A stretch of DNA of 64,000 bases. Origin: Selenomonadaceae bacterium. GTDB lineage: Bacteria; Bacillota; Negativicutes; Selenomonadales; Selenomonadaceae. Under the pieces are notes generated by a model. That model saw nothing but the letters and a program-made list of their open reading frames with translations, ran no database searches and had not been told where the DNA came from. This document shows, piece after piece, positions 2,453-55,189 of this stretch (the stretch's first letter is position 1; each line of letters starts with the position of its first letter). The position numbers were made by a program, and so were the translations under genes. Location of the stretch: the NCBI GenBank assembly GCA_017476005.1, contig JAFVEM010000046.1, positions 16,000 to 79,999 of the forward strand. The letters are read 5' to 3'.

Positions 2453-2469
2453 AATTGCACTGTGCAAAT
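2453..2469. promoter_or_regulatory. inverted repeat AATTGCAC-T-GTGCAAAT in the divergent carrier-protein/antitoxin intergenic region (candidate antitoxin operator)
   Basis: Read directly from the sequence: 7 of 8 positions are complementary across one central base, about 35 nt upstream of the antitoxin start codon. Confidence 0.3.
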
Positions 2470-2501
2470 ATGTATGTATTTGATTTAGGGGTGATGACAG
2501 A

Positions 2502-2777
2502 ATGAACTTTTATCCCGTTGACGAATGGGCAACCATGTCAGAGGATGTCATGTCGGATTTAAGCGATGGCCAAGAGGTAATTCTCACCGAAAAAGGCCGC
2601 CCCAAGGTGCTGATGCTCAGTATTCCCCAAGGTGGGTTTGATGAAACCGTGCGAGCAGTGCGCTCAGCCAAGGCCATGTTGGCGCTGGAGAGTATGCGTC
2701 GCAGAGCCGCCAAAGACGGCTTTATGTCCGATGAGGAGATAAACACTCTCATAGACGAGGCAAGGGCGGCAGTATGA
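2502..2777 (+). CDS. type II antitoxin (small protein partnered with the PIN toxin)
   Basis: 91 aa. Its stop overlaps the PIN gene start as ATGA. The size and genetic arrangement are typical of type II toxin-antitoxin pairs; the family assignment is uncertain. Confidence 0.55.
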   Translation: MNFYPVDEWATMSEDVMSDLSDGQEVILTEKGRPKVLMLSIPQGGFDETVRAVRSAKAMLALESMRRRAAKDGFMSDEEINTLIDEARAAV

Positions 2778-3166
2778 ATGTGGTCTTGGATACGAATATT
2801 TTGGTGTCGGCTGCGCTTTCACCGGGACGCAATGCCAGCAATATTCTTGCTGGCGTTGTCCAAGGGAGGTTCACCGCCTGTTATGATTCGCGTATACTGG
2901 AAGAGTATGAACGTGTGTTGCACTATCCCAAGTTCAAACTTACTTCATGGGAAATTTATTATGTTCTATCTCCTGTTATGGAGGGTGGCATGCGTATTAT
3001 GGCGCGTCCGCTACCTGATGTTTCCTTTGACAGAGACGAAACCGACCGCAAATTCTACGAAGTGGCTAGGACGTGCCACGGCATTTTGATAACGGGCAAC
3101 CTCGCCCATTACCCTAGCGAACCATTCATCATGTCGCCCGGCGATTTTTACCGTCGTTATTTGTGA
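2774..3166 (+). CDS. PIN-domain toxin (TIGR00305-like putative TA toxin)
   Basis: 130 aa. The N-terminus NVVLDTNILVSAALSPGRNASNIL carries the first PIN acidic residue, and RILEEYERVLHYPKF is typical of this PIN subfamily. 4-nt overlap with the antitoxin gene. Confidence 0.8.
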   Translation: MNVVLDTNILVSAALSPGRNASNILAGVVQGRFTACYDSRILEEYERVLHYPKFKLTSWEIYYVLSPVMEGGMRIMARPLPDVSFDRDETDRKFYEVARTCHGILITGNLAHYPSEPFIMSPGDFYRRYL

Positions 3167-3192
3167 GTCCCCATCTGGGGGCTTTTTCTTTT
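3167..3192 (+). terminator. short hairpin plus T-run after the PIN gene
   Basis: GTCCCC-atct-GGGGGC followed by TTTTTCTTTT. It lies between the convergent PIN and VOC stops. Confidence 0.4.
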
Positions 3193-3195
3193 CCC

Positions 3196-3612
3196 TCAAA
3201 CATCTCTCTTCTCGTTACGTGGATATTGCTCAACCAGTTCTATCATGCCTATGGCCTGATGATAAAAAAAGGCTACTTGCCTGTTGTCAATAGCCACAGC
3301 CGGTTGAGGTGGCTGAATCATTGCCCAGCCTCTTTGCTGCAGTTTATCTACGTCGGCGGCAAAATCATCGGCAAGGTAACAGAGGTGATAGGGGGCATCG
3401 CCTATCCTTTTTTGCAGGGCGCGAAAATTCTTGGCTTCCTTACGCGGCGCTACAAGCTCTACCACCGTGCCATCGTTCTCTAGAAAAACAATATCCACTT
3501 GGCGAGCGTCATCATAGCGACTGGACTTAACCACCGTGAAACCAAGCTGACGTAAGGAATCCATCGCCGAGGCTATATCGTGTACCAAATACCCTATATG
3601 ATGAATTTTCAT
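3196..3612 (-). CDS. VOC-family protein (glyoxalase / methylmalonyl-CoA-epimerase-like fold)
   Basis: 138 aa. MKIHHIGYLVHDI...VVELVAP...YHLCYL...MIELVE gives the paired beta-alpha-beta-beta-beta metal-ligand pattern. It starts 16 nt downstream of the FkbH-like gene with an AAGGAGG SD. Confidence 0.8.
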   Translation of the reverse strand: MKIHHIGYLVHDIASAMDSLRQLGFTVVKSSRYDDARQVDIVFLENDGTVVELVAPRKEAKNFRALQKRIGDAPYHLCYLADDFAADVDKLQQRGWAMIQPPQPAVAIDNRQVAFFYHQAIGMIELVEQYPRNEKRDV

Positions 3613-38800: not shown

Positions 38801-39684
38801 TCCCGGAATTTCGCACGGGCTTCACCAGACAAATGATCGATGATACTCACCCCAACTGTTTCAGCGACCTCGTGCGTATTTCCGGCTTTTCTCACGGTAC
38901 CGACGTGTGGCTGGGCAACGCTCAGGAACTCATTCGCGCCGGAACCTGTACCCTGAAGGACGCAATTTCCGCTCGGGACGACATCATGATGTACCTTATT
39001 CACCACGGCATTGATCCTTTGCTCTCCTTCAAAACCATGGAGGGAGTGCGTAAAGGCAAGGGCATCAAACCGGAAGTGGTGGAAATTCTTAGACAAGGCA
39101 ACGTGCCGGAATGGTACATCGAGTCCTGCCAAAAAATAAAATATCTGTTCCCCAGAGCTCACGCCACGGCCTATGTCATGATGGCTTACCGCATCGCTTT
39201 CTGCAAGGTGCATTACCCCCTAGCCTTCTACGCCGCCTATTTTTCCATTCGCGCTGCGGAATTTGATGCCAACGTGGTAGCCCGAGGCAAAGACTATGTG
39301 GGAGAGCAAATTAAGCTCCTAGAAGCCAAGGCCAAGGAGAAAAAGCTGGATGTAAAGGACAGCGGCACCCTTATCGTGTTGCAACTGGCTTGGGAAATGT
39401 ATCTCCGGGGTTTTAAAGTGGAATACGTGGATTTGTATAAATCCGACGCGGAAAAATTCATCATTTTGGAGGATTCGCTCTTGCCCCCCTTGGCCTCGTT
39501 GGCCGGTATGGGAAACGTAGCGTCCCGAAATATTGTGGAAGCTAGGCAAGCCGGCTACTTTACCTCGGTGGATGACCTCCACAAACGCTCCGGCATTTCC
39601 AAAACCTGCGTGGAGATTCTCCGAGAACACGGCTGCCTCGACGGCATGAGCGAAAGCGATCAAATGGCTTTGTTCGGTGGGTAA
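35872..39684 (+). CDS. polC: PolC-type DNA polymerase III alpha subunit lacking the 3'-5' exonuclease insert
   Basis: Present: the PolC N-domain, OB region, PHP motifs (ELHAHTTMSNMDG, ITDHGVVQAFPDA), the PolC zinc module (HWRCPHCQY...CPVCG) and the polymerase core. The PHP halves join directly at ...IIYGMEGYLVGEDYEQKRANHIILLAKNPQGL... with no DEDD exonuclease domain. About 1270 aa. Confidence 0.85.
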   Translation: MRKYRIVPQKENMFWQLVQGMDLAGEERRLLKNAAITHVEVTPKTNRWEVLLQTQELIGEELLTRAAGHIRTKCALSEVLFYQQVADVEAAVAKNWAKLAKEVADGNQIVYFSLRRMKPIVEGSRLKLTVGGEFSGEILTNYGIPALLRKTVKKMLGFNCDVEIVRDFVTSPSDFGYDEELAERNIPVYAPPVSLKEYQQAVAAEKSAAPPPPTSQPSAPTPHSAPLPTLPGADGLLLGKIFGGEAVKIETITEEMKNVVIEGFIGDGAMCGVRTNEFKTGTKLLTFAVADDTNGIGCKKFFKDKEKEEFERVTGLLKPGMEVRLKGSVKFDTYQNEYMFFVDSIAQKKGQKREDKAAEKRTELHAHTTMSNMDGVVSVKNLIKTAARWGHKAIAITDHGVVQAFPDAAKAVHDGKLDIKIIYGMEGYLVGEDYEQKRANHIILLAKNPQGLQHLYQLVSLSHLKYLHRQPRIPKALLAEYREGLIIGSACEAGELIRAIVEGRSEEELLEIAAFYDYLEIQPIGNNEFLKRSDNFPDVQTDDDLRNINLKVAALAKKLGKMLIATGDVHFLNPEDAIYRAILMKGKGYEDAEMQAPLFLRTTEEMLQEFAYLGEEEAYAAVVTNPGQISDMVEVLKPIPDDLYSPMIPGADEEIREMSYHRAKELYGENLPKVVEDRLEQELKPIIGHGFSVLYLISQRLVKKSNDDGYLVGSRGSVGSSFIATMTGITEVNPLPPHWRCPHCQYSKFIEDGSYGCGYDLPDRECPVCGTALIKDGHDIPFAVFLGFDGDKVPDIDLNFSGEYQPQAHKYTEVLFGKDNVYRAGTIATVADKTAFGYVLKFYEEKGIKKHRAFIERMAQGCMGVKRTTGQHPAGIMVVPRNMDIHFFTPIQRPADDKTTTTITTHFDYQSISSRLVKLDILGHDDPTVIKMLEDLTHRDPKTIPFDDKATLSIFSSTEALGVTPEELGANSGTFGIPEFRTGFTRQMIDDTHPNCFSDLVRISGFSHGTDVWLGNAQELIRAGTCTLKDAISARDDIMMYLIHHGIDPLLSFKTMEGVRKGKGIKPEVVEILRQGNVPEWYIESCQKIKYLFPRAHATAYVMMAYRIAFCKVHYPLAFYAAYFSIRAAEFDANVVARGKDYVGEQIKLLEAKAKEKKLDVKDSGTLIVLQLAWEMYLRGFKVEYVDLYKSDAEKFIILEDSLLPPLASLAGMGNVASRNIVEARQAGYFTSVDDLHKRSGISKTCVEILREHGCLDGMSESDQMALFGG

Positions 39685-39695
39685 CGGGGGAAAAT

Positions 39696-40253
39696 ATGCG
39701 TTTAGTAATCGGAATTTCCGGCGCCAGCGGCGTTATCATGGGCTACGAACTGCTCAAAGTTTTGCGCGCCACCCCGGAGGTAGAAACTCATCTGGTCATA
39801 ACGGAGGGTGCCAAAAAAACTTTTTCGCTGGAAACCGGCATCTCACCGACGCAGGCGGAGGCGCTGGCGGATTTTGCCTACGACAGCGCCGACTTTGCCG
39901 CGCCCATCGCCAGCGGTTCCTTTTTAACCGCCGGTATGGTAGTAATGCCCTGTAGTATGAAAACTTTAGCTGGGATAACCGTGGGTTACGCGGAAAATTT
40001 GCTGCTCAGAGCGGCGGACGTGACTTTAAAAGAGGGGAGACCCCTAGTCTTGGTGCCTAGGGAAACGCCTCTTTCCAAATTGCACCTGCGAAATCTTAAA
40101 GAAGCGGCAGACCTAGGCGCCACCATTCTCCCCCCCATGCTGACTTTTTATAACGGTGCCGACACGGTGGAAAAACAAATCAATCACCTGCTGGGCAAAA
40201 CTCTGCGTCTTTTGGGGCTAGACATGCCCGGATTTAAATCTTGGGGCGAGTAA
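39696..40253 (+). CDS. ubiX: UbiX-type flavin prenyltransferase
   Basis: MRLVIGISGASGVIMG...MVVMPCSMKTLAGI...LVLVPRETPL; 185 aa. Confidence 0.9.
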   Translation: MRLVIGISGASGVIMGYELLKVLRATPEVETHLVITEGAKKTFSLETGISPTQAEALADFAYDSADFAAPIASGSFLTAGMVVMPCSMKTLAGITVGYAENLLLRAADVTLKEGRPLVLVPRETPLSKLHLRNLKEAADLGATILPPMLTFYNGADTVEKQINHLLGKTLRLLGLDMPGFKSWGE

Positions 40254-40369
40254 GTAAAATTTGCTTTTTGCTTGCCATGGCGGTCGTATTTGAGTAAAAT
40301 AAACAAATATGAAAGACATCTGAAAAGACAGCTGGAAAGGAAAATATTTAATCTCGGGTGGTGTATTGC

Positions 40370-43300
40370 ATGGATTCAAAGTGGAACGTGGGCATAGACA
40401 TAGGCTCAACCACCATTAAATTGGTGGTCATGGACAAGGCGAAAAATCTTGTCCACCAAAGCTATGCTCGCCACTTTTCCGAAATTGGTCGAGCTTTGCG
40501 GGAAAATTTGACCACCCTCAAAAACATCGTGGGGGGACAGAAATTTTCTTTTGCTTTGACGGGTTCTGCCGGAATGGGAGTTGCCAGCCGCTTGCGTCTG
40601 CCCTTTGTGCAGGAGGTCATGGCTTCCGCCGCCGCGGTGAAAGCCTTTATTCCCCAGACCGATACGGTGGTGGAACTGGGGGGAGAGGATGCCAAGATAA
40701 CTTACTTGGGGGACGCCCCGGAACAACGGATGAACGGCGTGTGCGCCGGAGGTACCGGCTCTTTTATCGACCACATGGCGGCTCTCCTTGCGACCGACGC
40801 TCCGGGTCTCAATGCGCTGGCGGCCAAGGGCAAACAAATTTATACCATCGCTTCCCGGTGCGGCGTTTTTGCCAAGACGGATATTCAAGCCTTGATGAAC
40901 GACGGCGCGGCCAAAGCCGACATCGCCCTGTCCATTTTTCAAGCGGTGGTAAATCAAACCATCGGCAATTTGGCGCAGGGACGCCCTATCAGCGGCAAAG
41001 TAGCTTTCTTAGGCGGCCCTTTGCATTTTCTGCCGGAGCTGAAGAAGCGTTTTATCGCCACCTTAGGGCTGACCGAGGAAAACGTGGTGCAGGTCAAGAA
41101 CGGCAATTTCTTCGTGGCCATGGGGGCGGCGCTGTCAGACGAAGCGGAGCTTATGGACGAAAAACGTCTCGACCAAAGTCTGAACGCCGCTAATGAGGAA
41201 AATCGCCGGGAAAGCAAGCCGGAGTTGGTTCTTTTTGCCGACGAAAACGAATACGCCGCTTTTAAAATCCGTCACGACCAGCATAAAGTGCCGCGAGGCG
41301 AGCTAAAAACTTATCGCGGCGCGGTGTATCTGGGCATTGATGCCGGTTCCACCACCACTAAAATCGCCGCCATCGGCGAACATAAAGAACTCTTATACAC
41401 TTCTTACGGCAGCAACCACGGTTCGCCCTTAAAAACCGTGGTAAGAGAGCTGACGGAGTTTTATCGCGTCCTGCCGCACGCAGCGCATCTAGCCGCCGTT
41501 TATACCACCGGTTACGGCGAAGCCATCGTGAAGGCGGCGCTCCATGCCGACGGCTCGGAGGTAGAAACCTTTGCCCATCTCAGGGCGGCGCAGGAATTTT
41601 GCCCCGAGGTCTCTTTTGTCATGGACATCGGCGGTCAAGACATGAAATGCTTCTTTGTGCAAGAGGGCAGCATTGGCAACATCACCTTGAATGAGGCGTG
41701 TTCCGCCGGATGCGGCTCCTTTATCGAAAATTTTGCCCAAGGTCTGCATCTCACCGCCGGAGAATTTGCGAGGCTCGCCGTGAGCGCCACAGCGCCGGTG
41801 GATTTAGGCACTCGTTGCACCGTGTTCATGAACTCCAAGGTGAAACAGGCGCAAAAAGAAGGGGCGGAAGTAGCGGATATTTCGGCTGGCATCGCTGTTT
41901 CCGTGGTGAAAAACGCCCTCTTCAAGGTCATGCAACTAAAAGACGTGGCCGAGCTGGGAGAACATATTGTAGTCCAAGGCGGCACCTTTTATAACGACGC
42001 AGTACTGCGCGCCATGGAAAAAATTCTCGGCAGGGAGGTAATTCGCCCGGACATAGCCGGTCTGATGGGCGCTTACGGCGCGGCGATTTTGGCCTGCGAG
42101 TCGGGAGCTTACGCATCAGGCTTGCTGTCGGCGGAGAAGCTGGCGGATTTTGCCGTGAAAACCGATTCATATCGCTGTAAGGGTTGCGGCAACTCTTGCC
42201 TCATTACTAGGCAAGAGTTTTCCGACGGGGGCAAATATTTTACCGGGAATCGATGCGAGCGAGGTATCGGCGGCAAAAAAACGCAGGATAACGCCACTAA
42301 CATTTACGCTTACAAGTATGAGCGGCTCTTTGTTCCCTACAAGCCGCTGGAAAATCCCCGGCGAGGGGTAATCGGCATTCCGCGTACGCTGAATATGTAC
42401 GAGGAATATCCCTTTTGGTTCACTTTCTTTAACGAGCTGGGCTATAGAGTGGAAATTTCCGGCAAATCCACGGCCAAAATGTACTGCAAGGGCATGGCCA
42501 CCGTGCCGTCGGATTCCCTTTGCTATCCGGCGAAACTCGCCCACGGGCATATCATGGATTTGGTGGAGCGTGGGATTAAGAAGATTTTCTACCCCTGCGA
42601 GCCTTATAACATGGTTGATGAAGCTCATAAAAACGCCAATCATTTCAATTGTCCCGTGGTGGCCTCCTACGCCGAAAACATTCGGGGCAACATGGACATT
42701 TTAAGAGAAAAAAATATAACCTTTATCCAGCCATTCCTCCCCATTAACGACCCTAAACGGCTGACGGAACGTCTCGTCGAAGAACTCACGGGCGAGAATC
42801 TCACCAAAAAAGAAATCGCCGCCGCCGTAGATAGAGCTTACGCGGAACTGGCGCATTATCGGGCAGACGTGCGCCGCTACGGCGAGAAGCTACTGGCGGA
42901 GCTCAATAAAGCCAACGCTCCGGCCATAATGCTGGTGGGACGGCCTTATCACATCGACCCGGAAATAAACCACGGCATCCCGGAAATGATTGCTTCCTAC
43001 GGACTGCCCATTATTTCCGAAGATGCGGTATATCATCTGCCGGTAAAAAATTACCCCTTGCAAGTGGTGAACCAGTGGAGCTATCACGCTAGGCTTTATC
43101 ATGCCGCCGAATTTGTAGCCGCCCACCCGAACATTACCCTCATTCAACTCAGCTCCTTCGGTTGCGGCCTTGACGCTATCACCACCGGGCAGGTCAAGGA
43201 AATTTTGGAATCCCGGCGGCGCATTTACACCATGATTAAATTGGACGAGGTGTCGAATTTAGGCGCGGCGCGGATTCGTTTGCGGTCTTTGCTGGCGGCG

Positions 43301-44620
43301 CTGAAAAGGCGGCAGGAAATCCCCTACCGCCCGATGGTAGCGGTAGAGCGGCCTCATTTCACCGAGGACTGCAAGGCTACCCACACGGTTTTGGTGCCGC
43401 AAATGGCGCCCATTCATTTTGAGCTTTTAAAAACCGCTATTGAAAAGTACGGCTACGTTTTGGCTATTCCTCCCATGCCGGACAAAGCGGCCATCGACCT
43501 AGGACTGCGCTATGTGAACAACGATATGTGTTACCCGGCCATAGTGGTCATCGGGCAACTGATTGCCGCCTTGCGTTCGGGAAAATACGACGTAAACCAC
43601 ACGTCCATCATGCTCTTTCAGACCTGCGGCGCCTGTCGCGCCACCAATTATTTGGGGGTACTGAGGCAAGCCTTAAAATACGCCGGTTACGGTCAGGTGC
43701 CGGTCTTTGCTTGCCGGGGACTGCCGGAGGAGACAGACTCCTTTAAATTAAATCCCTCCATGTTGGCGGATGTCATTAAAGCCGCCGTCTATGGGGATCT
43801 GTTGATGAACGTCAAAAATCGGATGCTCCCTTACGAAACAATACGCGGCGAAACTCAGCGGCTATTTGACAAGTGGCTGGAAAAGAGCAAGGCCGAATTG
43901 CAAGATGGCAATTACTTTAAATTCCGCCGCAACATTAAACAAGCGGTGCGAGAATTTGATAATTTACCCATCGACGATACCCGGTGGAAACCGAAAGTGG
44001 GGGTGGTGGGAGAAATTTTGGTGAAATATCATCCGGTAGCCAACAACCGCTTGGAAGAAGTGTTGCTGAAGGAAGGCGCCGAGGTGGTGATGCCGGATTT
44101 CGTTGATTTCTTCCTCTATGCGGCTTACGATGCCGTAGCCGGTCATCGACTTTTGGCCGGTTCCCTGAAGGACAAACTTTTCGCCAAAATGTTTATCCGC
44201 TTCATGGAATTTTTCCGCGCCCCCATGCGGCACGCCTTGACAGCCAGCCGCCATTTTCGGTCGCCTCAAGACATCGCCGCCACAGCCAAAATGGCCGAGC
44301 GGCATGTGAGTCTGGGGAATATGGCCGGCGAGGGCTGGTTCCTCACCGGGGAAATGGTGAAGCTCATCGAAGAAGGAGTTCCCAATGTGGTGTGCTTGCA
44401 GCCCTTCGGGTGTTTGCCCAATCACATCACCGGCAAAGGCGTTATGCACGAGTTGCGCGCCCACTATCATCAGGCCAACATCGTGGCCATTGACTGCGAT
44501 GCCGGTTCCAGCGAAGTTAATCAGCTGAATCGCATCAAACTTATGTTGGCGGTGGCTAAAGATAAGCAACCGGCAGAGGCAGAAGGGGAGGCCAGCTATG
44601 GCAGAGTACAAACCTTATAA
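40370..44620 (+). CDS. fusion of two BcrAD/BadFG/HgdC-type ATPase (activase) domains with 2-hydroxyacyl-CoA-dehydratase-like domains
   Basis: Acetate/sugar-kinase-fold starts occur twice (VGIDIGSTTIKLVV and LGIDAGSTTTKIAA), followed by Cys-rich dehydratase-like C-terminal halves. ATG 40370 follows GGGTGG by 8 nt. Confidence 0.75.
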   Translation: MDSKWNVGIDIGSTTIKLVVMDKAKNLVHQSYARHFSEIGRALRENLTTLKNIVGGQKFSFALTGSAGMGVASRLRLPFVQEVMASAAAVKAFIPQTDTVVELGGEDAKITYLGDAPEQRMNGVCAGGTGSFIDHMAALLATDAPGLNALAAKGKQIYTIASRCGVFAKTDIQALMNDGAAKADIALSIFQAVVNQTIGNLAQGRPISGKVAFLGGPLHFLPELKKRFIATLGLTEENVVQVKNGNFFVAMGAALSDEAELMDEKRLDQSLNAANEENRRESKPELVLFADENEYAAFKIRHDQHKVPRGELKTYRGAVYLGIDAGSTTTKIAAIGEHKELLYTSYGSNHGSPLKTVVRELTEFYRVLPHAAHLAAVYTTGYGEAIVKAALHADGSEVETFAHLRAAQEFCPEVSFVMDIGGQDMKCFFVQEGSIGNITLNEACSAGCGSFIENFAQGLHLTAGEFARLAVSATAPVDLGTRCTVFMNSKVKQAQKEGAEVADISAGIAVSVVKNALFKVMQLKDVAELGEHIVVQGGTFYNDAVLRAMEKILGREVIRPDIAGLMGAYGAAILACESGAYASGLLSAEKLADFAVKTDSYRCKGCGNSCLITRQEFSDGGKYFTGNRCERGIGGKKTQDNATNIYAYKYERLFVPYKPLENPRRGVIGIPRTLNMYEEYPFWFTFFNELGYRVEISGKSTAKMYCKGMATVPSDSLCYPAKLAHGHIMDLVERGIKKIFYPCEPYNMVDEAHKNANHFNCPVVASYAENIRGNMDILREKNITFIQPFLPINDPKRLTERLVEELTGENLTKKEIAAAVDRAYAELAHYRADVRRYGEKLLAELNKANAPAIMLVGRPYHIDPEINHGIPEMIASYGLPIISEDAVYHLPVKNYPLQVVNQWSYHARLYHAAEFVAAHPNITLIQLSSFGCGLDAITTGQVKEILESRRRIYTMIKLDEVSNLGAARIRLRSLLAALKRRQEIPYRPMVAVERPHFTEDCKATHTVLVPQMAPIHFELLKTAIEKYGYVLAIPPMPDKAAIDLGLRYVNNDMCYPAIVVIGQLIAALRSGKYDVNHTSIMLFQTCGACRATNYLGVLRQALKYAGYGQVPVFACRGLPEETDSFKLNPSMLADVIKAAVYGDLLMNVKNRMLPYETIRGETQRLFDKWLEKSKAELQDGNYFKFRRNIKQAVREFDNLPIDDTRWKPKVGVVGEILVKYHPVANNRLEEVLLKEGAEVVMPDFVDFFLYAAYDAVAGHRLLAGSLKDKLFAKMFIRFMEFFRAPMRHALTASRHFRSPQDIAATAKMAERHVSLGNMAGEGWFLTGEMVKLIEEGVPNVVCLQPFGCLPNHITGKGVMHELRAHYHQANIVAIDCDAGSSEVNQLNRIKLMLAVAKDKQPAEAEGEASYGRVQTL

Positions 44621-45458
44621 GTCGGGCAAGGTGCGGGAAGTTTACGATTTAGGCGATCACCTCATCATGGTCGCCACGGATAGAATTTCCGCCTTCGACC
44701 ACATTCTCAAAAATAAAGTGACTGGCAAAGGCGTTATCCTCACCAAAATGTCCGAGTTTTGGTTTAACCTCACGGCGGATATTTTGCCCAATCACCTCTT
44801 AACCACGGACAACGACGCTATGCCGGAGTTTTTCCGGCAGGAAGAATTTTTAGGACGCAGCACGAAATGCCGCAAGCTCCGAATGCTCCCATTAGAATGC
44901 ATTGTCCGGGGTTACATCACCGGCAGCGGCTGGGAAAGCTACCGACAAGACGGCACGATCTGCGGTATCAAACTCCCCCCGGGGCTGAAGGAAGCGGAAA
45001 AACTTACCAACCCCATCTTCACCCCCAGCACCAAAGCTGAACTGGGCGACCACGACGAAAATGTTTCCCTAACGGAGGCGGCCAGAGCAATAGAAAAATC
45101 TTTTCCCGGCAAGGGCGAAGAATACGCCGCTAAAGCTTGCGACTACTCCCTGCGCGTCTATGAAAAATGCGCCGCCTACGCCAAAGAGCGCGGTATCATC
45201 ATCGCCGACACCAAATTCGAGTTTGGGGTAGATGACGAGGGACAAATCCGTTTGGCCGACGAGGTACTCACCCCGGACAGCTCGCGTTTTTGGCCGCTCG
45301 CCGGTTATACCCCCGGCCAAAGCCAACCTTCCTACGATAAACAATTTGTTCGCGACTGGCTGAAAGCCAATCCTACCAGCGACTACGCCTTGCCCCAAGA
45401 CATTATCGACAAAACCATCGCGAAATACCAAGAGGCTTACGATTTGCTGACGCGTTAG
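44598..45458 (+). CDS. purC: SAICAR synthetase
   Basis: YKSGKVREVYDLGDHLIMVATDRISAFD. Its start overlaps the end of the preceding gene by 23 nt. Confidence 0.9.
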   Translation: MAEYKPYKSGKVREVYDLGDHLIMVATDRISAFDHILKNKVTGKGVILTKMSEFWFNLTADILPNHLLTTDNDAMPEFFRQEEFLGRSTKCRKLRMLPLECIVRGYITGSGWESYRQDGTICGIKLPPGLKEAEKLTNPIFTPSTKAELGDHDENVSLTEAARAIEKSFPGKGEEYAAKACDYSLRVYEKCAAYAKERGIIIADTKFEFGVDDEGQIRLADEVLTPDSSRFWPLAGYTPGQSQPSYDKQFVRDWLKANPTSDYALPQDIIDKTIAKYQEAYDLLTR

Positions 45459-45476
45459 ACAAAAAAGGAGAAAGCC

Positions 45477-45965
45477 ATGAAAGTTGCAGTGATGATGGGG
45501 AGCGATTCGGACTGGCCGATTATTAAGCCGGCCACGGAACTTTTGAAAGAATTTGGGATAGAGGCGCAAATAATCGTAGCTTCGGCGCACCGCACGCCGG
45601 AAAAAGTCCGGGATATTGCGCTGAACTCAGGTCAAGACGGCATCGACCTCTTTATTGTGGCGGCCGGAGCGGCGGCGCATTTGGCCGGAGTGGTGGCAAG
45701 CTATACCGTGAAGCCCGTTATCGGCGTACCCATAAATGCCACCCCTTTAAACGGCATGGACGCGCTTCTCAGTACGGTGCAGATGCCTTCCGGGGTTCCC
45801 GTGGCCACCATGGCAGTGAACGGCGCCAAAAATGCGGCGGTGATGGCGGCGGAAATCCTCGCGGTAGGCAGTCCCGACCTGCGAGAGAAACTGGCGGCTT
45901 ATCGCGAGAAGTTAAAAGTCGCCGTGGAGAAAAAAGCCGCTCGGGTGGCGGCGCAACAGCTGTAA
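45477..45965 (+). CDS. purE: PurE (N5-CAIR mutase / AIR carboxylase family)
   Basis: VAVMMGSDSDWPI...SAHRTPEK...AGAAAHLAGVVAS. Confidence 0.9.
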   Translation: MKVAVMMGSDSDWPIIKPATELLKEFGIEAQIIVASAHRTPEKVRDIALNSGQDGIDLFIVAAGAAAHLAGVVASYTVKPVIGVPINATPLNGMDALLSTVQMPSGVPVATMAVNGAKNAAVMAAEILAVGSPDLREKLAAYREKLKVAVEKKAARVAAQQL

Positions 45966-45991
45966 CAGCCTTGAAGAGAAACGAGCGATAT

Positions 45992-47425
45992 ATGCAAGAA
46001 AATTTTACGGTCTCGCCTTGGCATGAGGAATGTGGGGTTTATGGAGTTTATTCTCGCGCCGAGGACGTGGCGGAAATGACTTACTACGGCCTTTACGCTC
46101 TGCAACATCGAGGACAGGAGAGCGCCGGTATCGCCATTACCGACGGCGCTTGGATGGATGTCAATCGTGGCATGGGGCTGGTAGGCGAAGTCTTCAGGCA
46201 TCAGCTCCCCCACATGGAGGGACAATATATTGCCATCGGCCATGTGCGCTACTCCACCACCGGCTCCAGTCTTTTGAGCAATACCCAGCCGCTCATGGTG
46301 AATTTTTCCGGGGGGAAAATCGCCCTCGCCCATAACGGCAACCTCACCAACGCCGCCGAAATTCGTCACGAGCTGGAAGAGAACGGCACTACCTTTCAAA
46401 CTACCATTGATTCGGAAGTCATAGTCAATTTAATTGCTCGCTCTCGCGCCGCCACCATCGAAGAGCGCATCAGAGAAAGCCTTAGCAAGATAAAAGGGGC
46501 TTACTGCCTAACGCTGATGACGGAGAATAAACTCATCGGCGTTAGGGATCCTCAAGGCTTCAGGCCTCTTTGCCTAGGGAAAACCGAGGCCGGCTCTTGG
46601 GTAATTTCCTCCGAAAGCGCCGCCCTTGATGTAGTCGGAGCAGAATTTATCCGGGACGTGGCGCCGGGAGAAATGGTGGTCATTGACGACGAGGGACTCC
46701 GTTCCTATGAATTTGCCACCAAGGAAAAACGCGCCGCCTGCGTCTTTGAGTACATTTACTTTGCCAGACCCGATTCGATAATTGACGGTCAAAGCGTCCA
46801 CGAGGCCAGATTCATGATGGGGAGGATGCTGGCCAGAGAAAGCGGCTGCATGGGTGATATTGTGATTTCCGTGCCGGATTCCGGCAATACGGCGGCATCG
46901 GGCTTTGCCGTGGAGGCTAAAATCCCCTACATGGAAGGTTTGGTGAAAAATCGTTACGTTGGCCGCACCTTCATTCAACCCTCCCAAAAAAAACGGGACA
47001 AGGCGGTGCAGTTAAAACTAAATCCCATTCGCTCCGTGGTGGCGAGTAAAGCCGTCATTTTGGTAGATGATTCCATCGTGCGCGGCACCACCAGCGGCAA
47101 AATCGTCAAGATGCTGAGAAACGCCGGCGCCAAAGAAGTGCATATGTGCGTAAGTTCTCCCCCCATCGGTTTTCCTTGCTACTACGGCATTGACACTTCC
47201 ATTCGCAAGGAGTTAATCGCCGCCTCCAAAACAGTGGAGGAAATCTGCGCTTATATCGGCGCCGATTCCCTGCATTTTTTGTCTTTGGATGGTTTAAAGG
47301 CCGCTTTCTCTGCCGCCCAAGCGGAAAACATGTGCTACGCCTGTTTCAACAGCGCTTACCCGGTGGAGCAGGGAAAATGTCCTCGGAGCGCCGGAAAATA
47401 CGTTTTCGAGCCTAGGAAATGTTGA
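45992..47425 (+). CDS. purF: amidophosphoribosyltransferase
   Basis: The propeptide ends in EECGVYG (Ntn cysteine), with the PRPP loop VILVDDSIVRGTT. ATG 45992 gives a 13-residue propeptide. Confidence 0.9.
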   Translation: MQENFTVSPWHEECGVYGVYSRAEDVAEMTYYGLYALQHRGQESAGIAITDGAWMDVNRGMGLVGEVFRHQLPHMEGQYIAIGHVRYSTTGSSLLSNTQPLMVNFSGGKIALAHNGNLTNAAEIRHELEENGTTFQTTIDSEVIVNLIARSRAATIEERIRESLSKIKGAYCLTLMTENKLIGVRDPQGFRPLCLGKTEAGSWVISSESAALDVVGAEFIRDVAPGEMVVIDDEGLRSYEFATKEKRAACVFEYIYFARPDSIIDGQSVHEARFMMGRMLARESGCMGDIVISVPDSGNTAASGFAVEAKIPYMEGLVKNRYVGRTFIQPSQKKRDKAVQLKLNPIRSVVASKAVILVDDSIVRGTTSGKIVKMLRNAGAKEVHMCVSSPPIGFPCYYGIDTSIRKELIAASKTVEEICAYIGADSLHFLSLDGLKAAFSAAQAENMCYACFNSAYPVEQGKCPRSAGKYVFEPRKC

Positions 47426-47427
47426 GC

Positions 47428-47578
47428 ATGGGGCTTTGCCCCATACCCCACCAAAGGGCTTTGCCCTCTGGACTTCCAGCAGGGACTTTCGCCCCTGCAC
47501 CCCATAATAAGTTTATTAAAGGGTGCAGGGGGATTATCCCCCTGCTGGGGTTTGGGGCAAAGCCCCAAAAATAAAAAT
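47428..47578. repeat. full-length stacked-hairpin repeat, inverted relative to copy A (copy D)
   Basis: Its reverse complement is collinear with 10401-10543, module by module, with paired (compensatory) stem substitutions. It begins 3 nt after the purF stop. Confidence 0.85.
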
Positions 47579-47592
47579 ATAAGGAGGGACAT

Positions 47593-48651
47593 ATGGCAGA
47601 AGAACTTACATATCGCGCCGCCGGCGTGGATATTGATGCCGGCAATCGCGCCGTGGAAATGATAAAGAAAAGCGTTCGCGCCACTTATCGCCCGGAGGTT
47701 ATGGGGGACTTGGGCGGTTTTGGCGGCCTTTTTGCCCTAAACCCGAAGTATAAAGAGCCGGTGCTAGTGTCCGGCACCGACGGCGTCGGCACGAAACTGA
47801 AACTGGCTTTCAGGCTGAATAAACACGATACCATCGGGCAAGATGCGGTGGCCATGTGCGTCAACGATATTTTGGTGCAGGGAGCGGAGCCGCTTTTCTT
47901 TTTGGATTATTTGGCGGTGGGGAAATTAAACCCGGAGCAGGTGGCGGAAGTAGTTAAGGGCGTGGCGGCGGCTTGCAAGGAATCCGGGTGCGCCCTGATT
48001 GGCGGCGAAACGGCGGAAATGAGCGGTTTTTATCCGCCGGGGGAATACGACATCGCCGGATTCGCCGTGGGAGTGGTGGAAAAAGAACGCCTCATCACCG
48101 CGGCGCTGGTGAACGAAGGGGATATTCTCTTGGGACTGCCGTCCTCTGGGCTTCACTCCAACGGCTATACCCTAGCGCGAAAAATTGTTTTTGAGCGTCG
48201 GCAAATGACCGGTAGCGAATACATCCCCGAACTCGCCAAAACTATCGGCGAGGAACTTTTGACACCCACGCGGCTGTACCCGAAAATTATTTTGCCCCTG
48301 CTCGCAGAATTTGCCGCAGCTGTTCGCGGCTTGGTGCATATCACCGGCGGCGGCTTCTACGATAATATCCCTCGGGCGTTGCCGAAGGGTCTCGCGGTAG
48401 AAATAAATAGCGACGCATGGGAAAAGCCCCCCATTTTTTCTTTGCTACAAGCGTGGGGCAATGTGCCTTGGAAGGAAATGTATCGGACTTTCAACATGGG
48501 CATAGGCATGGTCGTTGTGGTGGCGGCGGATAAGGCCGGAGCGGTACGGGAGTTTTTGACCGCGCAAGGCGAAAAGTGCTACGAAATTGGCCGGGTCACC
48601 ACGGGAGAGGGTGTCACCATCAGAGGCGAGGTTTTTGACCATGCCGACTAA
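47593..48651 (+). CDS. purM: AIR synthetase
   Basis: [12 protein letters not shown]...GTDGVGTKL...DYLA. Confidence 0.9.
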
Positions 48652-49282
48652 AGAACGCTTAGGAGTGCTTTGTTCCGGCCGCGGCACGGATCTACAATCC
48701 ATCATTGACGCCATTGACCGGGGCGAAGTCAACGCCGAAATAGCCGTGGTGTTGACGGACAAACCTAACGTCATGGCGCTGGAACGCGCCGCCAAAGCCA
48801 AGATAAAAAATCTTTGCGTCAATCGACAGGAGTTTGCGAGCCGGGAGGATTTTGAACGCGCATTGGTGCGAGAACTCCAAGCGGCAAGTGTTACCTTGGT
48901 GGTACTGGCCGGCTTCATGCGGCTCCTCAGTCCCTATTTCGTCCACGCCTACCAAGGCCGCATCATGAATATTCACCCCTCTCTTTTGCCCTCCTTCGGC
49001 GGCGCTCACGCTCATCGTGACGTTTTGGCCTACGGCGTTAAGGTTTCGGGTTGCACGGTGCATTTTGTGGATGAGGGCATGGACCGCGGCCCCATTATTC
49101 TGCAAGAGGCTGTTCCCGTGTGGGAAAACGACACGGAAGAAACACTAGCGGCTAGAGTACTCGAAAAAGAACACCTCGTTTACCCCAAGGCCATTCAGCT
49201 TTACTGCGAGGGTAGATTGAAAGTGGAAGGACGTCAGGTGCGGATTTTGGATTTCGCTGGGGGCAAGGAAAATGGCCAATAA
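48641..49282 (+). CDS. purN: GAR formyltransferase
   Basis: [16 protein letters not shown]...NIHPSLLP...[20 protein letters not shown] 48641 overlaps the purM end by 11 nt. Confidence 0.85.
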
Positions 49283-51050
49283 GGTTGTAGTCATCACCGT
49301 GACCAAAATCGAATCGGATATCGTGGAGAGCTTCGTGCGTCACACGCTGACCTTTGCCGATGAAATCATCATCGCCGACAACGGCAGTAGCGACGGCACT
49401 TGGGAAATTCTGCAACACTTGCGCGACGAAGGACTGCCCCTGCACTGTCGGCGGCTCCTGCCCAAAGTGGAGTTTGCCCACGACGAAATGATGCTGTCTT
49501 TGCTGTGGGACGCCTTGGATAATCACGGAGCCGATTTGGTGTTGCCCTTGGATACCGACGAGTTTTTAATCGGCACGGAACCGGGCATTTCCTGCCGTGA
49601 CGTGCTCCGTAAGCTACCGAGCGACGACATCTACGCGCTGAAATTGGTGAAATACAATCCCGAAGTCCCCTATGTGGATTCCACTGCCTTCTTATTGCAA
49701 GGTATTTGTCGGCGCGAGGCGCCGCCGCGTGAGGTAAAAACCTACAAGGTGGTGGTGGGCGCCAAAGGATTGCCGCCGGGACGCACCTTTCGTTATGTCC
49801 CCGGTTGTCACAGCGCCTACGCCGCGTTGCCTTCGGGTGACGAAAACATTACCCTCACCGCCTTGCCCGATCTGCACTTGGCTCATTTTCACTGGCGCAG
49901 CGACGAGCGCTACCTAATCAAGTCCATCCTTGGTTGGCCGGGCATGGTATGCCAATATACGGCTTATACGGCGAACTGCTCATACATGAAGGACATCTAC
50001 GAAAGCATCATCCGCGGAAACCGTCAAGGGTTCCAACCGTCATTCGGTACCAAAAGCGAAAGCGTGAATATCGCCTCCTACTGCGCTCCTCAAGTCATGC
50101 GCTACGGTAACGAAGCCAAATTAGACGGGCTGGCCACCTCCATGTTGGAATGCGTCAAGATAGCCGAAGCCTACGTTGAGGAAAAAGTCCTTCGCTTGGT
50201 GCGCCGCGTTGACCTGCTATTGCCTTACTTTGGAGACATGGCGGCTCTGCGCCAAGCGCTTTGTTTGGCGCGAGAGCAGACTTATCCCCATATCAACCTG
50301 TTCATACTGAACTTGACCGCCAGCGACATACCACCAGGCTCATTGCTTGACGGTTCTCCCGTTGCCCGGGTCATACCGCTAGCCGGAATATCCCACGAAC
50401 AAGGCGAGGCCACCTTAAATCGCGAACTCAATGGTGATTACGTTCAGTGGATTTTGCCGGGAAGTTACTTAGAGCCGCCCCATGTGAACCGCTTGCTAGC
50501 GCTGACCGAAACCCAAAGTATGCGACTGTCGCTGTATATGTTCAGTGGAGCCGCGCCTTTTACGCCGTTGCATCCCTATGTGGATCTGTGTGGCGCCTAC
50601 AGTTACGATAACGTCGATGCCAAAAAACTTTGGCCGCGACTGTTGGCGCAAGGTCGCTATCCGGTGGGCGGACTTGATAATCTCCTGTTGCCGCGACAGG
50701 TCATGCACGATTGTCACTGGTTGCTAGCTTGCCTGACGGCCACGGGATTGCAACTTATGTCCGCGTGGCGAGCGCTGCTCGGCGTTACCGCTAAAATTTT
50801 CGTGACTCGCGGCAACGCTACGGCCACGCGTTGCGTAACTGCAGAGGAATACATTTATCACCAACTGGACTGGTTCAATCTGCTGAATGAGGACAACAGC
50901 TTACTCGACGATGAGGGATTGCGCGCGGCTTTGGCTCTGTGGCGCGACAATTATTTGTCCCTCAGCGCTAACGAATCATTGCGAAATACTGAGGCATGGT
51001 CGGCCTATGCAAAGACCGCCGCTATTTTTTTCTCAAGAGGTGCACTATGA
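49272..51050 (+). CDS. two-domain GT-A (family-2-like) glycosyltransferase-like protein embedded in the pur operon
   Basis: N-terminal [38 protein letters not shown]...LDTDEFL (DxD motif). A second GT-A-like module begins around [10 protein letters not shown]...[10 protein letters not shown]. It overlaps purN by 11 nt and the IMP cyclohydrolase gene by 4 nt. Confidence 0.65.
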
Positions 51051-51640
51051 AAGTAAAACGCGCGCTGATTAGCGTCTCGGATAAAACCGGCGTGGTGGAA
51101 TTTGCCAAAAGTTTGACGGAGGCCGGAGTGGAAATAGTTTCCACGGGGGGAACCATGAAAGCGTTGAAGGAAGCCGGCCTACCCGTTACCTACGTCAGCG
51201 ATGTTACCGGTTTCCCCGAAATTATGGACGGTCGGGTGAAGACCTTGAATCCCTACATTCACGGCGGTATTTTGGCGGTGAGGGACAATCCCCGTCATAA
51301 GCAGGAAATGCAGGAACATAAAATCACCCCCATTGACCTCGTGGCGGTAAATCTCTATCCCTTCAGAGAAACGGTGATGAGGCAGAACGTGACGCTGGCA
51401 GAAGCCGTGGAAAATATCGACATTGGTGGGCCGGCCATGATCCGCGCCGCCGCCAAGAATTTTAAATTCGTGACGGTAATTACCAGTCCCACCCGTTACG
51501 CCGAGGTGGCCGCCCTTATCAAAAAAGACGGTTGCGTCAGCGGTATGTTGCGCATGGAACTGGCGCGAGAAGCCTTTGCTCACACGGCGGAATACGATGA
51601 CGCCATTCAAAAATACCTCAGCGAGCAGGTGGCAAAATGA
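51047..51640 (+). CDS. purH: IMP cyclohydrolase (MGS-like N-terminal domain of PurH only; no AICAR transformylase domain)
   Basis: [21 protein letters not shown]...[22 protein letters not shown]...[16 protein letters not shown]. It ends after about 197 aa, at the position of the inter-domain linker of bifunctional PurH. Confidence 0.85.
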
Positions 51641-52911
51641 ACATTTTGATTATCGGCTCCGGAGGGAGAGAACACGCCCTCGCTTGGAAAATCGCCCAAA
51701 GCCCTCGGTGCGAAAAACTTTACGCCCTGCCCGGCAATCCCGGAATGGAAGAAATCGCGGAATGTTTGACGGGGCTTAGTATTGAAGATAATGAAGCGGT
51801 AGTTAGGATGGCTAAAGAAAAGTCTATCGACCTTGCGGTGATAGGCCCCGAGGTGCCGCTGATGAACGGCCTCGCCGACGCGTTAGAGGCCGCCGGTATT
51901 AGCGCTTTCGGCCCCAGTCAGAAGGCGGCAGCCATCGAAGGCTCCAAGGCTTTTGCCAAGGACATTATGAAAAAATACGGCATCCCCACGGCTAAATACC
52001 AAACGTTCAGCGAGGCGGCGACGGCCAAAAAATATATTGCAGAGGAAGGCGCCCCCATCGTGGTAAAAGCCGACGGGCTAGCAGCCGGCAAAGGGGTTAT
52101 CGTGGCCGCCACCTTAGAGGAAGCTCTGGCGGCGGTGGATGACATCTTCGGGGGAGCTTTCGGCGCGGCCGGCGCCAAAGTGGTTATCGAGGAATTTATG
52201 CAAGGTGAGGAAGCCTCCCTCCTCGCTTTCACTGACGGCAAAACCGCCCTCCCCATGCTTTCCTCGCAAGATCATAAGCGAGCCTACGACGGCGACAAGG
52301 GGCCAAATACGGGGGGTATGGGTACTTACGCTCCGGCGCCCGTCATGACCGCTAAAATGACCCAAGAAGCCACGGAAAAAATCTTGCAGCCCATCATTGC
52401 CGCCATGGCCAAAGAAGGCCGCCCCTTCAAAGGTTGCTTGTACGCCGGTTTGATGATTACCGAAGAAGGCCCTAAAGTAGTGGAGTTCAACGCCAGATTC
52501 GGCGACCCGGAGACGCAAGTCGTTCTGCCGCTCCTGAAAAGCGACTTGGTGGAAATAATGCTCGCTTGCGCCGAGGGCAACCTAGACAAACAAAAGATTG
52601 AATGGGAAGACGGCGCGGCGGTATGCGTGGTGCTGGCCTCCGGCGGCTATCCCGGCAAATACGTCAAGGGCTATCCCATTGAGGGACTGACGGCCGCTAA
52701 AGAGGCGGCTATGCTGGTTTTCCACGCCGGTACTAAAAGGCAAGGAGCCGAAATCGTTACCGCCGGGGGACGGGTCTTAGGCGTGGTGGCTAAGGCAAAA
52801 GATATTCCCTCCGCCGTAAACAAGGCTTATGTGGGAGTATCCCTGATAAAATTTAAAGATGTCCATTATCGCCATGATATTGCCCATTTAGCCATGAAAA
52901 AACGAGGCTAA
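51637..52911 (+). CDS. purD: GAR synthetase
   Basis: [18 protein letters not shown]...[13 protein letters not shown]...[10 protein letters not shown]. Confidence 0.95.
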
Positions 52912-52925
52912 CAGAATAATACGCC

Positions 52926-52960
52926 AAAAGGCGCAGACACTTTTACGGTCTGCGCCTTTT
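52926..52960. terminator. bidirectional terminator between purD and queF
   Basis: AAAAGGCGCAGAC-acttttacg-GTCTGCGCCTTTT. Confidence 0.75.
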
Positions 52961-53454
52961 TACCTGTTATCCACTTTTTCCAGATTCGTCAAATCGTGCT
53001 CCCACAAGCGATGGTCGGCTAGTTTTTCATACTTGGTGCCGGGGTGTCCCCAGTTGGCGTAAGGGTCGATGGAGATGCCGCCCCGGGGCAGGAATTTTCC
53101 CCACACCTCGATATAGCGCGGCTCTAACAACTTTATGAGATCCTTCATGATGATGTTTACCACGTCTTCGTGGAAATCCCCGTGGTTCCGAAAGCTCACT
53201 AGGTACAGCTTCAGGGATTTGCTCTCCACCATTCTCTTATCCGGGAGGTAAGCGATATAAAGGGTGGCGTAATCCGGCTGGCCGGTGATGGGGCATAAAG
53301 TGGTAAATTCCGGGCAGTTGAATTTCACCCAGTAATCGTTCTCCGGGTGCCGGTTGGCAAAAGTTTCCAAAAGTCCCGGGTCGTAGTCATACGCATAGGC
53401 TGTTTTTTTATTGCCGAGGAGAGAAAGCCCCTCGGCTTCTTTTTCTCTGGGCAT
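52960..53454 (-). CDS. queF: NADPH-dependent 7-cyano-7-deazaguanine reductase
   Basis: [25 protein letters not shown] (catalytic Cys) and SLKLYL.SFRN; 164 aa, unimodular type. Confidence 0.9.
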
Positions 53455-53470
53455 TACTTTCTCCTGTCAT

Positions 53471-55189
53471 TCATTCCATAGCCATAACGCTGCCGTGCAG
53501 AAACTTCGCCTCAAAATCCGGCACGGCCTCCGGCCGTCCGAACAGATAGCCCTGAATGGAATCGGCGCCGCACTCGGAGGCCAGTAGCTCATACTCCGCT
53601 TGCCCTTCGACTCCTTCGATGCAACTTTTCAAGCCGATACTGTGACAAAGCTCCACGGTGTATTTTACTAAACGGCGGTCAAAATCGCTTTCGAGGATTT
53701 TTTTCACAAACTCTCGGTCAATCTTTACGATGTCGCAGGAAAGATTTTTCAGGGAAGACAGCGAGGAGTAGCCCGTGCCGAAATCGTCCATGGCGATGGC
53801 AATGCCTTGTTCCCTAAAAACAGCGAATTGCTGATTGACAAAATTCCAATCCGCCACGATTTTGCTTTCGGTCAGCTCTAAAATAACCGCTTCCGGCGGC
53901 AAGCCGCTTTCCTTGATGCACTCCACCACAAATTCCTGAAAGCCGGGATCGCGCACCTGTTCGTAGCTTAAATTCACGCTGACGCGAAAATCAGGTTGAG
54001 TTTGCCGCCACTTTTTGCAGACGACGAGGGCTTCGCGTAAGATCCACTTGCCCACGGGGATTATTAGCCGGGTTTCTTCCAGTATGGGGATAAATTCCAT
54101 GGGGGATACCATGCGTCCCTTGGCGTTTTGCCAACGCAGAAGGGCTTCGGCGCCGATGAGTTTTCGTTCGCGCGCGCTGACTTGGGGCTGAAAGTACAGC
54201 TGGAACCCGGCGCACCCGGCCTCCACGCTGGCTCTAAGGCTATCCCGTAGGGAAATGGCGCGCACCCAACGATTGTACTGTTCTTTGCTGAAGAGACAGT
54301 TGCGGTTTTTGCCGTCCTGCTTGGCGATGTCCATGGCCGCTTCGGCGTGTTTGTGCAACACCAAATAATCCTTGCCCGACTGGGGGTAAAAAACTGTTCC
54401 CGCCGACACGGTGCAGAAAAAATTCTGGCCGCCGATGAGTGTCGGCTGGGCGAGGGAGCCTTGAATAGCGGTAAAGAGTCCGGCCACCTGCTCCTCCGTA
54501 GCCTTGGGGTAAATCAGGCCGAACTCATCGCCGTCCAGTTTGTAGAGAGTCAACGTCTGCGGCAGAATATCCGCGACGGTCTTGGCCACATGTTTTAGCA
54601 CCATGTCCCCTACCGTGCGGTTGCGCGTCTCGTTGACGATCTTAAAATTATCTAGGCCAAAGACCATTACCGCGCCCCCATCCCCGGTGGCGCGAAATTC
54701 CCCTAAGGCCATTTTGACGCTGTGTTCAAATTGGTATTTATTCAAAAGTCCCGTGATTTCATCGGCCTTATTGCGCCGCGCCATCTTGTTCATCATGCCG
54801 ACAAAGATGGCAGGTCGCCCCTCCTGATCCGTTCCCACTTGGCCGGTGGCTCTAATCCAGACATACTCTCCCTTGCGGTTTTTTACTCGGTATTCCCGGA
54901 AATACTCGCCGGTGTTTTTGCCCTCCAGCACATCGCGAATGGTGGCCAGATAAAACCCTCGTTCCTCGGGGTGTATCAGGGGACTCCAGTAGCTGTCCAT
55001 ATCCTCTAAAACCTCCGCCGGAAGTTCAAATTCCTGCACCATTCCGGGGGAGAGCATCACCACGTTGTTTTGCAGGTCGCTACAGAACATATAGGCATCG
55101 GTAGTTCTTTTTACGAGGTCAAAAAAGAATTTAAAACGCTTGAGAAGTGGGGTCAGGGGGACACGACTTATCTTTTTCATGTTCGTCAT
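53471..55189 (-). CDS. PAS - degenerate GGDEF - EAL protein (probable c-di-GMP phosphodiesterase)
   Basis: EAL-domain blocks are intact (EALLRW, ELTES, DDFGTGYSS, KIDREF, EGVE). The GGDEF site reads LDGDEF. Confidence 0.85.
   Translation of the reverse strand: MTNMKKISRVPLTPLLKRFKFFFDLVKRTTDAYMFCSDLQNNVVMLSPGMVQEFELPAEVLEDMDSYWSPLIHPEERGFYLATIRDVLEGKNTGEYFREYRVKNRKGEYVWIRATGQVGTDQEGRPAIFVGMMNKMARRNKADEITGLLNKYQFEHSVKMALGEFRATGDGGAVMVFGLDNFKIVNETRNRTVGDMVLKHVAKTVADILPQTLTLYKLDGDEFGLIYPKATEEQVAGLFTAIQGSLAQPTLIGGQNFFCTVSAGTVFYPQSGKDYLVLHKHAEAAMDIAKQDGKNRNCLFSKEQYNRWVRAISLRDSLRASVEAGCAGFQLYFQPQVSARERKLIGAEALLRWQNAKGRMVSPMEFIPILEETRLIIPVGKWILREALVVCKKWRQTQPDFRVSVNLSYEQVRDPGFQEFVVECIKESGLPPEAVILELTESKIVADWNFVNQQFAVFREQGIAIAMDDFGTGYSSLSSLKNLSCDIVKIDREFVKKILESDFDRRLVKYTVELCHSIGLKSCIEGVEGQAEYELLASECGADSIQGYLFGRPEAVPDFEAKFLHGSVMAME

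Follow-up and report, generated by a model that had tools for sequence, protein, structure and literature searches.

The stretch analysed here (the window: 64,000 nucleotides (nt) of a Selenomonadaceae bacterium, assembly GCA_017476005.1, contig JAFVEM010000046.1, positions 16,000 to 79,999 of the forward strand) carries a purine-biosynthesis (pur) operon on its + strand. Within this operon a gene for a 592-amino-acid (aa) protein that resembles glycosyltransferases (GTs) of the GT-A fold and has two such domains, called GT592 in what follows (49272..51050, +), stands between purN and an odd-looking purH. The purN gene, encoding glycinamide ribonucleotide (GAR) formyltransferase, occupies 48641..49282 (+; PF00551 at 4.5e-57), its start being the likely one, as placed by gene callers. 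The gene that follows GT592, purH' (51047..51640, +), is of the PurH2 type and specifies the inosine monophosphate (IMP) cyclohydrolase only; purD, encoding GAR synthetase (51637..52911, +; GARS_N, GARS_A and GARS_C matches), is the last gene of the operon. Direct reading of the junctions confirms the coordinates, the order purN-GT592-purH'-purD and the overlaps on which the original prediction was built: purN and GT592 share 11 nt (aaATGgccaaTAA), the GT592 stop and the purH' start share the 4 nt ATGA, and purH' and purD likewise share an ATGA. The same order, purM-purN-GT592-purH'-purD, is found in two independent metagenome assemblies, and the arrangement is therefore not a mis-assembly. 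The locus is most economically read as the superposition of two unrelated facts, a split PurH that is general in the family and a glycosyltransferase gene that was inserted in this lineage and would encode a functional transferase of a surface or flagellin glycan; we assign this reading a probability of about 0.8.

The product of purH' is 197 aa long. It comprises the MGS domain (PF02142, 2.8e-26) and only the first 59 of the 311 positions of PF01808, the profile of 5-aminoimidazole-4-carboxamide ribonucleotide (AICAR) formyltransferase (AICARFT), and it aligns with positions 1-192 of 511 of the purH model TIGR00355 and with positions 4-196 of NF002049; the AICARFT half is absent, as had been described. 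Inspection of motifs, made without formal alignment to the human enzyme, finds the four that hold the IMP cyclohydrolase catalytic residues, RAAAKN among them (the residues are K66, Y104, D125 and K137 in human numbering; PMC3261824). When the window's own genome is searched with PF01808, a second gene appears at C58:9814-10974; its product, 387 aa in length, matches NF005492 over positions 4-390 of 390 and scores 698.8 bits, where the cut-off is 415. By these profile matches it is a stand-alone, folate-dependent AICAR formyltransferase, unlinked to the pur operon, and on gene content purine synthesis lacks no step in this genome: the pathway is complete without GT592.

Neither half of this arrangement is peculiar to the genome in question. 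A purH' frame of ~200 aa is present in 57 of 61 family genomes and an NF005492-type AICARFT in 58, lying far from purH' wherever the genome is complete; two small genomes (G019 and G020) have neither gene. This family-wide occurrence marks the split form as ancestral to the family and, on the sequence comparison, older than the insertion of GT592. Farther afield, a sample of 301 genomes of the phylum contains 33 (11%) with the stand-alone type, and Bacteroides thetaiotaomicron, used as a control, has it too. A curated annotation model (NF005492 / PRK07106) already covers the split form. Isolated PurH domains have been described as frequent only in Archaea (PMC3261824); since Archaea alone are named there, the split of PurH in bacteria appears to be known to annotation models and little discussed.

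Two features of the neighbourhood of the stand-alone gene can be recorded in passing. Within the region C58:293-12317, two large flagellin genes (612 and 710 aa) are found ~5.5 kb away from it, a nearness to flagellar genes that is probably coincidental. The stand-alone gene also directly adjoins a 387-aa Cys-rich open reading frame (ORF; MLLYLRPTYLEKFKCDGAACQSNCCQGW...) that has no Pfam match and that we take, on resemblance, to be akin to FliB-type flagellin lysine methylases.

The second fact, the insertion, emerges from comparison with relatives. When purM, purN, GT592, purH' and purD were compared by tblastn with the purH' loci of 29 relatives belonging to different genera, purN was found directly before purH' in 26, less than 110 nt away, and the pur operon of none of the 29 contained a GT592 homologue; the conserved purN-ORF-purH' arrangement for which a check had been proposed does not exist among them. 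The purN-purH' spacers of the relatives (junctions compared in 24) are 15-105 nt long and contain a Shine-Dalgarno sequence. Relative to theirs, which end 1-5 codons past a conserved (V/I)RIL, the purN of the window has nine extra C-terminal codons. The inserted segment extends approximately from 49250 to 51046 (+), so placed by the junction comparison, and GT592 is, as far as alignment can define it, a single-gene insertion of ~1.8 kb confined to this lineage. Among the BLAST matches listed for this contig, no copy of a REP/MITE-like repeat (repetitive extragenic palindrome or miniature inverted-repeat transposable element) falls inside GT592 or at its flanks.

Two proposals as to a recent origin are rejected. 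The GC content, third-position GC content (GC3) and synonymous codon usage of GT592 are indistinguishable from those of the neighbouring pur genes, which speaks against recent foreign origin. Recent duplication is likewise rejected: the paralogues in the same genome are only 36% and 29% identical to GT592 and belong to other clades of the family tree.

The junctions are made in such a way that the operon can be read through the inserted gene. Both the Shine-Dalgarno sequence and the start of GT592 fall within the last ~9 codons of purN (FAGGKENGQ), which the relatives do not have, and the last codons of GT592 contain the Shine-Dalgarno sequence of purH' (AGAGGTG). With its start and stop overlapping purN and purH', GT592 would be read through with the operon, and expression of purH' and purD would not be interrupted; serial translation across both overlaps should be possible. 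A terminator scan found none on the + strand between purN and purD, promoter and terminator scans across the operon stayed at background level, and within 39000-54000 every Rfam family remained below its gathering score. The overlapping starts and stops, together with the lack of a + strand terminator, argue for co-transcription of GT592 with the pur operon. To this extent the proposal that coupling signifies co-expression is reasonable; the implication of a shared function does not follow from it, for co-expression with the pur genes is not evidence of a task in common with them.

The notion that GT592 has such a task, either in replacing or assisting AICARFT or in some pathway-linked ribosyl or nucleotide modification, can draw on this translational coupling to purN and purH', on the terminator-free operon, and on a 43%-identical relative that lies 3.6 kb upstream of its own genome's pur operon (see below). 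It is nevertheless hardly credible. The genome has a genuine AICARFT, the split purH is found in 57-58 of the 61 family genomes and predates the insertion, and GT592 is missing from the pur operons of all 29 relatives. The gene does not co-occur with the truncated purH: full-length members of the GT592 family are present in ~10 of 37 genomes, against 57 of 61 for purH'. The protein has a GT-A fold with a DxD motif and no formyltransferase or ATP-grasp features, and its relatives sit in flagellin islands. A stand-alone AICARFT accompanied by the absence of GT592 from relatives' pur operons is the pair of findings that the original prediction itself had set against its purine-linked proposals, and it is the pair that was obtained. 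Non-orthologous replacement of AICARFT, the most speculative of those proposals, fails along with purine-linked nucleotide or ribosyl modification, and what stands of the original explanations is the first: AICARFT is encoded elsewhere, on C58, and GT592 is a hitch-hiker in the operon.

The remaining genes of the operon were identified in two ways: purC and purE, like purN and purD, by Pfam matches of the window's ORFs, and purF and purM by reading of the sequence. The purM gene, encoding aminoimidazole ribonucleotide (AIR) synthetase, lies upstream of purN (47593..48651, +), and an identical copy on an independent contig has the Pfam AIRS/AIRS_C domains. The spacer between purF and purM (47426-47593, 168 nt) is a copy of a palindromic REP/MITE-like element with G/C stems; the element has ~160 BLAST matches genome-wide, further copies in the window among them, and its presence in this spacer constitutes a second insertion in the pur operon, besides GT592.

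In three of the relatives the region around purH' departs from the common arrangement. At locus L031 (genome G078) the purN-purH' spacer holds, at 2164-2605 and on the opposite strand, a 95-aa ORF (MKFEWDQNKNKINLQKH...) and a 60-aa partner; we take the 95-aa ORF to be BrnT-like on sequence resemblance rather than on a profile scan. At L048, in the complete genome G026, a 97-aa ORF and a 196-aa zeta-toxin ORF lie between purH' and purD (2106-3238); the latter matches PF06414 at 5.9e-20 over profile positions 76-189 only and is possibly truncated. At L038 the operon is broken upstream of purH'. Accessory genes at the purN-purH' and purH'-purD junctions of relatives indicate that these junctions tolerate accessory DNA.

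The protein encoded by GT592 conforms to the original description of two GT-A-like modules, to which a helical tail can be added. Domain 1 (residues ~1-250; 49272..50021, +) is predicted to be the catalytic one. It accounts for the profile matches, which are to GT2-type GT-A models only and extend over the first ~100 residues (~90 for Pfam; Glyco_tranf_2_4 at residues 14-102): PF13704 at 1e-11 (45.6 bits; cut-off 27.5) and PF00535 at 1.3e-5 (25.7 bits; cut-off 23.3). There is no NCBIfam match, and no curated model covers the family over its full length. In an alignment of 27 members, 25 columns are invariant, nearly all within residues 14-217; they include D36, S39 and D41, P92, the D94-x-D96-E97-F98 that forms part of the LDTDEFL motif of the GT592 ORF, H180, H205, R209 and K217. 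The invariant pattern of domain 1 is, in sequence terms, that of a metal-dependent GT-A active site, and GT592 keeps all 25 residues, the DxD and His of domain 1 included. Domain 1 thus looks active, and is predicted to be catalytically competent.

Domain 2 (residues ~305-515; 50184..50816, +) was recognised by profile alignment, residues ~306-450 of the family profile aligning to the GT2 structures GalT1, TarS and SpsA. It is a degenerate GT-A-like domain. Opposite the DSDD/TDD of those structures stands 'wllpGe' (LPGS in GT592), opposite their NDGSTD stands 'ilnltga', and those of its residues that are conserved across the 27-member alignment are structural ones only. Replacement of the DxD and NDGSTD counterparts implies that the GT-A fold has been kept and the ligands of nucleotide sugar and metal lost, throughout the family; domain 2 probably serves acceptor binding or as a scaffold. 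The helical tail (residues ~520-592; 50829..51050, +) is assigned from the secondary structure of an AlphaFold2 model (pLDDT 90.2, pTM 0.84). The closest Foldseek matches of this model are to two enzymes with paired GT-A domains, the K4 chondroitin polymerase (K4CP) and PmHS2, followed by LH3 and single-domain GT2 enzymes; the structural neighbours also include polysaccharide polymerases and the wall-teichoic-acid glycosyltransferases TarP and RmlT. No hydrophobic or signal segment is evident on reading the sequence, for which no predictor was run. GT592 is best described, from sequence and model, as a soluble protein in which a GT-A domain that looks active is followed by a pseudo-GT-A domain and then by a helical tail.

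Is it then a working gene? GT592 might be no more than an inert passenger, an insertion in decay or without function that is tolerated since it leaves expression of the operon unbroken. This would accord with its occurrence in one lineage only, with the lack of catalytic motifs in domain 2, and with the toxin-antitoxin modules at the same junctions of relatives, whose spacers evidently tolerate foreign DNA. The state of the gene makes this very improbable. The 592-codon frame is intact and retains every one of the family-invariant residues; loss of the domain-2 DxD is a property of the whole family and not decay of this copy; codon usage is native; and the precision of the overlaps keeps downstream translation coupled. 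With its invariant residues kept, its codon usage native and its presence in two assemblies, GT592 looks like a real and functional gene.

What it might do must be sought among its relatives, whose genomic contexts are the sole functional lead. An indexed protein search returned 39 of them, the best being 43-44% identical and the few with names being Selenomonas proteins; an exhaustive search gave ~100 representative clusters at E<1e-30, with many more proteins matching the N-terminal domain only. Full-length copies occur in ~10 of 37 sampled family genomes, at 1-9 copies each, and the window's own genome has three diverged copies. The family is accordingly patchy and multi-copy, and is seen here almost only in Selenomonadaceae-type genomes. 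In a maximum-likelihood tree the window copy falls in a clade of 100% support together with the solitary P0002-P0008 and the flagellin-adjacent P0018/P0012 group. One genome, G031, has nine family matches in all; about six copies, full or partial, stand in tandem on its contig C14 (2872-10060), and one has an in-frame TGA. Duplication and decay within the family would seem to be rapid.

Genomic contexts were obtained for nine relatives through database proteins (P0002, P0006, P0010, P0012, P0016, P0018, P0019, P0020 and P0025). Six of the nine contexts are of the flagellin kind or are islands of GT41 and tetratricopeptide-repeat (TPR) genes, and the genomes G026 and G004 add two more. In S. 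ruminantium, P0018 is flanked by flagellin genes and comes directly after fliW-csrA-flaG-fliD-fliS-fliT-fliC. P0016, 4.5 kb downstream of a flagellin gene, belongs to a cluster on one strand that also comprises GT41, two GT9, GT2 and methyltransferase genes, and P0025 is 2.7 kb from two flagellin genes. P0012, P0019 and P0020 are in GT41/TPR/GT2 islands, one of which also has a UDP-galactopyranose mutase gene and a YjfB-motility gene. The G026 order, all on one strand, is FliS, flagellin, two GT2-TPR genes, GT41 (1683 aa), GT41, TPR, methyltransferase, the family member and a nucleotidyltransferase. In G004 two family copies belong to a ~38-kb one-strand island downstream of flagellin (C3:9001-49000, L073/L074). 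The G004 island also encodes GT2 and TPR giants, a fusion of phosphoenolpyruvate (PEP) mutase with a cytidylyltransferase, and a thiamine pyrophosphate (TPP)-dependent decarboxylase, an equipment for phosphonate synthesis that hints at phosphonate-decorated flagellin glycans. Large flagellins are encoded in the window's genome too, as are several GT41 proteins, one of them of 1691 aa. Selenomonas flagella are reported, in PMC13339959 with citation of Rath et al. 2018, to be heavily O-glycosylated.

By analogy with these contexts, a role of GT592 in the flagellin glycan has a little better than an even chance. Several observations weigh against it, and against the insertion with which it is combined. 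A search on either side of the insertion turned up no significant repeats, direct or inverted, but only short matches at chance level, and no mobile-element remnants. The window copy lies outside any flagellin or glycan-synthesis cluster, the nearest Flagellin_N match being ~18 kb downstream and outside the window (C66:85174), and its closest relatives, P0002 and P0006 (43-44% identity), are solitary among housekeeping genes; with the window copy and its nearest kin both away from flagellin, the flagellin link is one of family association only. The paralogues of the same genome, on C11 and C40, are solitary as well, with uninformative neighbours. P0010 adjoins TagF-like (PF04464), IspD-like and epimerase genes, a setting in which a polyol-phosphate polymer is a possible target. 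Finally, P0002 (43% identical) is the relative, mentioned above, that is found only 3.6 kb upstream of a pur operon. On the metagenome contig of P0002 (L023 8001-17803) htpG and an AraC-type gene separate it from purE-purC-purF-purM-purN; this proximity may be a coincidence or a remnant of shared ancestry.

Part of this evidence can be turned to the support of a different target. GT592 might modify some other glycoconjugate (lipopolysaccharide O-antigen or core, capsule, a teichoic-like polyol-phosphate polymer, or another surface protein) and have no part in flagellin glycosylation. The neighbours of P0010 would suit such a target, the solitary C11 and C40 paralogues, P0002 and P0006 have no informative neighbours to speak otherwise, and polysaccharide polymerases, TarP and RmlT are among the structural neighbours of the model. 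Against it stand the six of nine contexts, G026 and the G004 island, all of them flagellin or GT41/TPR islands, and a protein whose sequence, on reading, shows neither a membrane segment nor features of the polymerase type. Modification of another glycoconjugate is possible but doubtful.

The mechanism favoured here combines the lineage-specific insertion with a flagellin- or surface-glycan transferase. A glycosyltransferase gene of ~1.8 kb would have landed in the short purN-purH' spacer and been retained there as a passenger, translated by way of the overlaps and co-transcribed with the pur operon. In the protein, domain 1 would transfer the sugar, its DxD and His binding metal and nucleotide sugar, and domain 2 would bind the acceptor or act as a scaffold. 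Most likely GT592 adds or extends a sugar on the flagellin O-glycan, an acceptor suggested by its relatives; another surface glycan is the less likely acceptor. A bolder proposal holds that the placement of GT592 under purine-operon control is adaptive, so that the flagellar or surface glycan varies with purine and nucleotide supply. This is improbable; were it true, a dispersed paralogue recruited into a biosynthetic operon would provide nutrient-coupled variation of the cell surface. A weaker version posits an undescribed class of flagellin-glycan transferases in which an active GT-A domain is joined to a pseudo-GT-A domain.

The analysis first removes a false lead: judged by gene content, the organism has the whole of purine synthesis, and purH, odd as it looks, has the split form that is normal in the family. 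It also indicates that a foreign gene can become part of a core biosynthetic operon with precise overlaps of start and stop, and that the same two pur junctions have been invaded independently, by toxin-antitoxin genes, in other genera. And it singles out an uncharacterised family, with its putatively active GT-A domain, degenerate GT-A domain and helical tail and with up to 9 copies per genome, as a reasonable target for the study of the heavy and unusual O-glycosylation of Selenomonas flagella.

Among proteins of determined structure, the nearest in overall design to GT592 are the E. coli K4 chondroitin polymerase (2z86/2z87) and the Pasteurella heparosan synthase PmHS2 (8vh7/8viw), soluble proteins of ~550-600 aa with two tandem GT-A domains. 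They are its best Foldseek matches (E ~1e-10), at an identity of only 10-12% and a whole-chain template-modelling (TM) score of 0.25-0.42. Polymerases of this type have two catalytic domains, each with its own DxD. The second domain of GT592, unlike theirs, has no DxD, which makes an alternating co-polymerase mechanism unlikely. Human LH3 (PLOD3; 6fxk and related entries), also among the Foldseek matches, offers another parallel: there, too, the active GT-A domain precedes a second domain of Rossmann/GT-A-like type, an accessory GT-like domain that is non-catalytic. LH3 differs in having a C-terminal lysyl hydroxylase domain and in acting on collagen; a sequence relationship is undetectable, and the likeness is architectural only. 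The glycosyltransferases of flagellin-glycosylation islands in Firmicutes and Negativicutes (GT2-TPR and GT41/OGT-like, next to fliC) are the system to which GT592 is tied by the genomic position of its relatives, which are embedded among them on the same strand, immediately downstream of flagellin; the GT592 family differs from them in its lack of TPR repeats and its own two-domain layout, and the window copy in not residing in an island. With respect to the known split PurH, which pairs a PurH2-type cyclohydrolase with an NF005492 AICARFT, there is no difference in kind. GT592 thus appears as a GT-A glycosyltransferase of the flagellin-glycosylation toolkits that occupies an unusual site, with an ordinary split purH as its neighbour.

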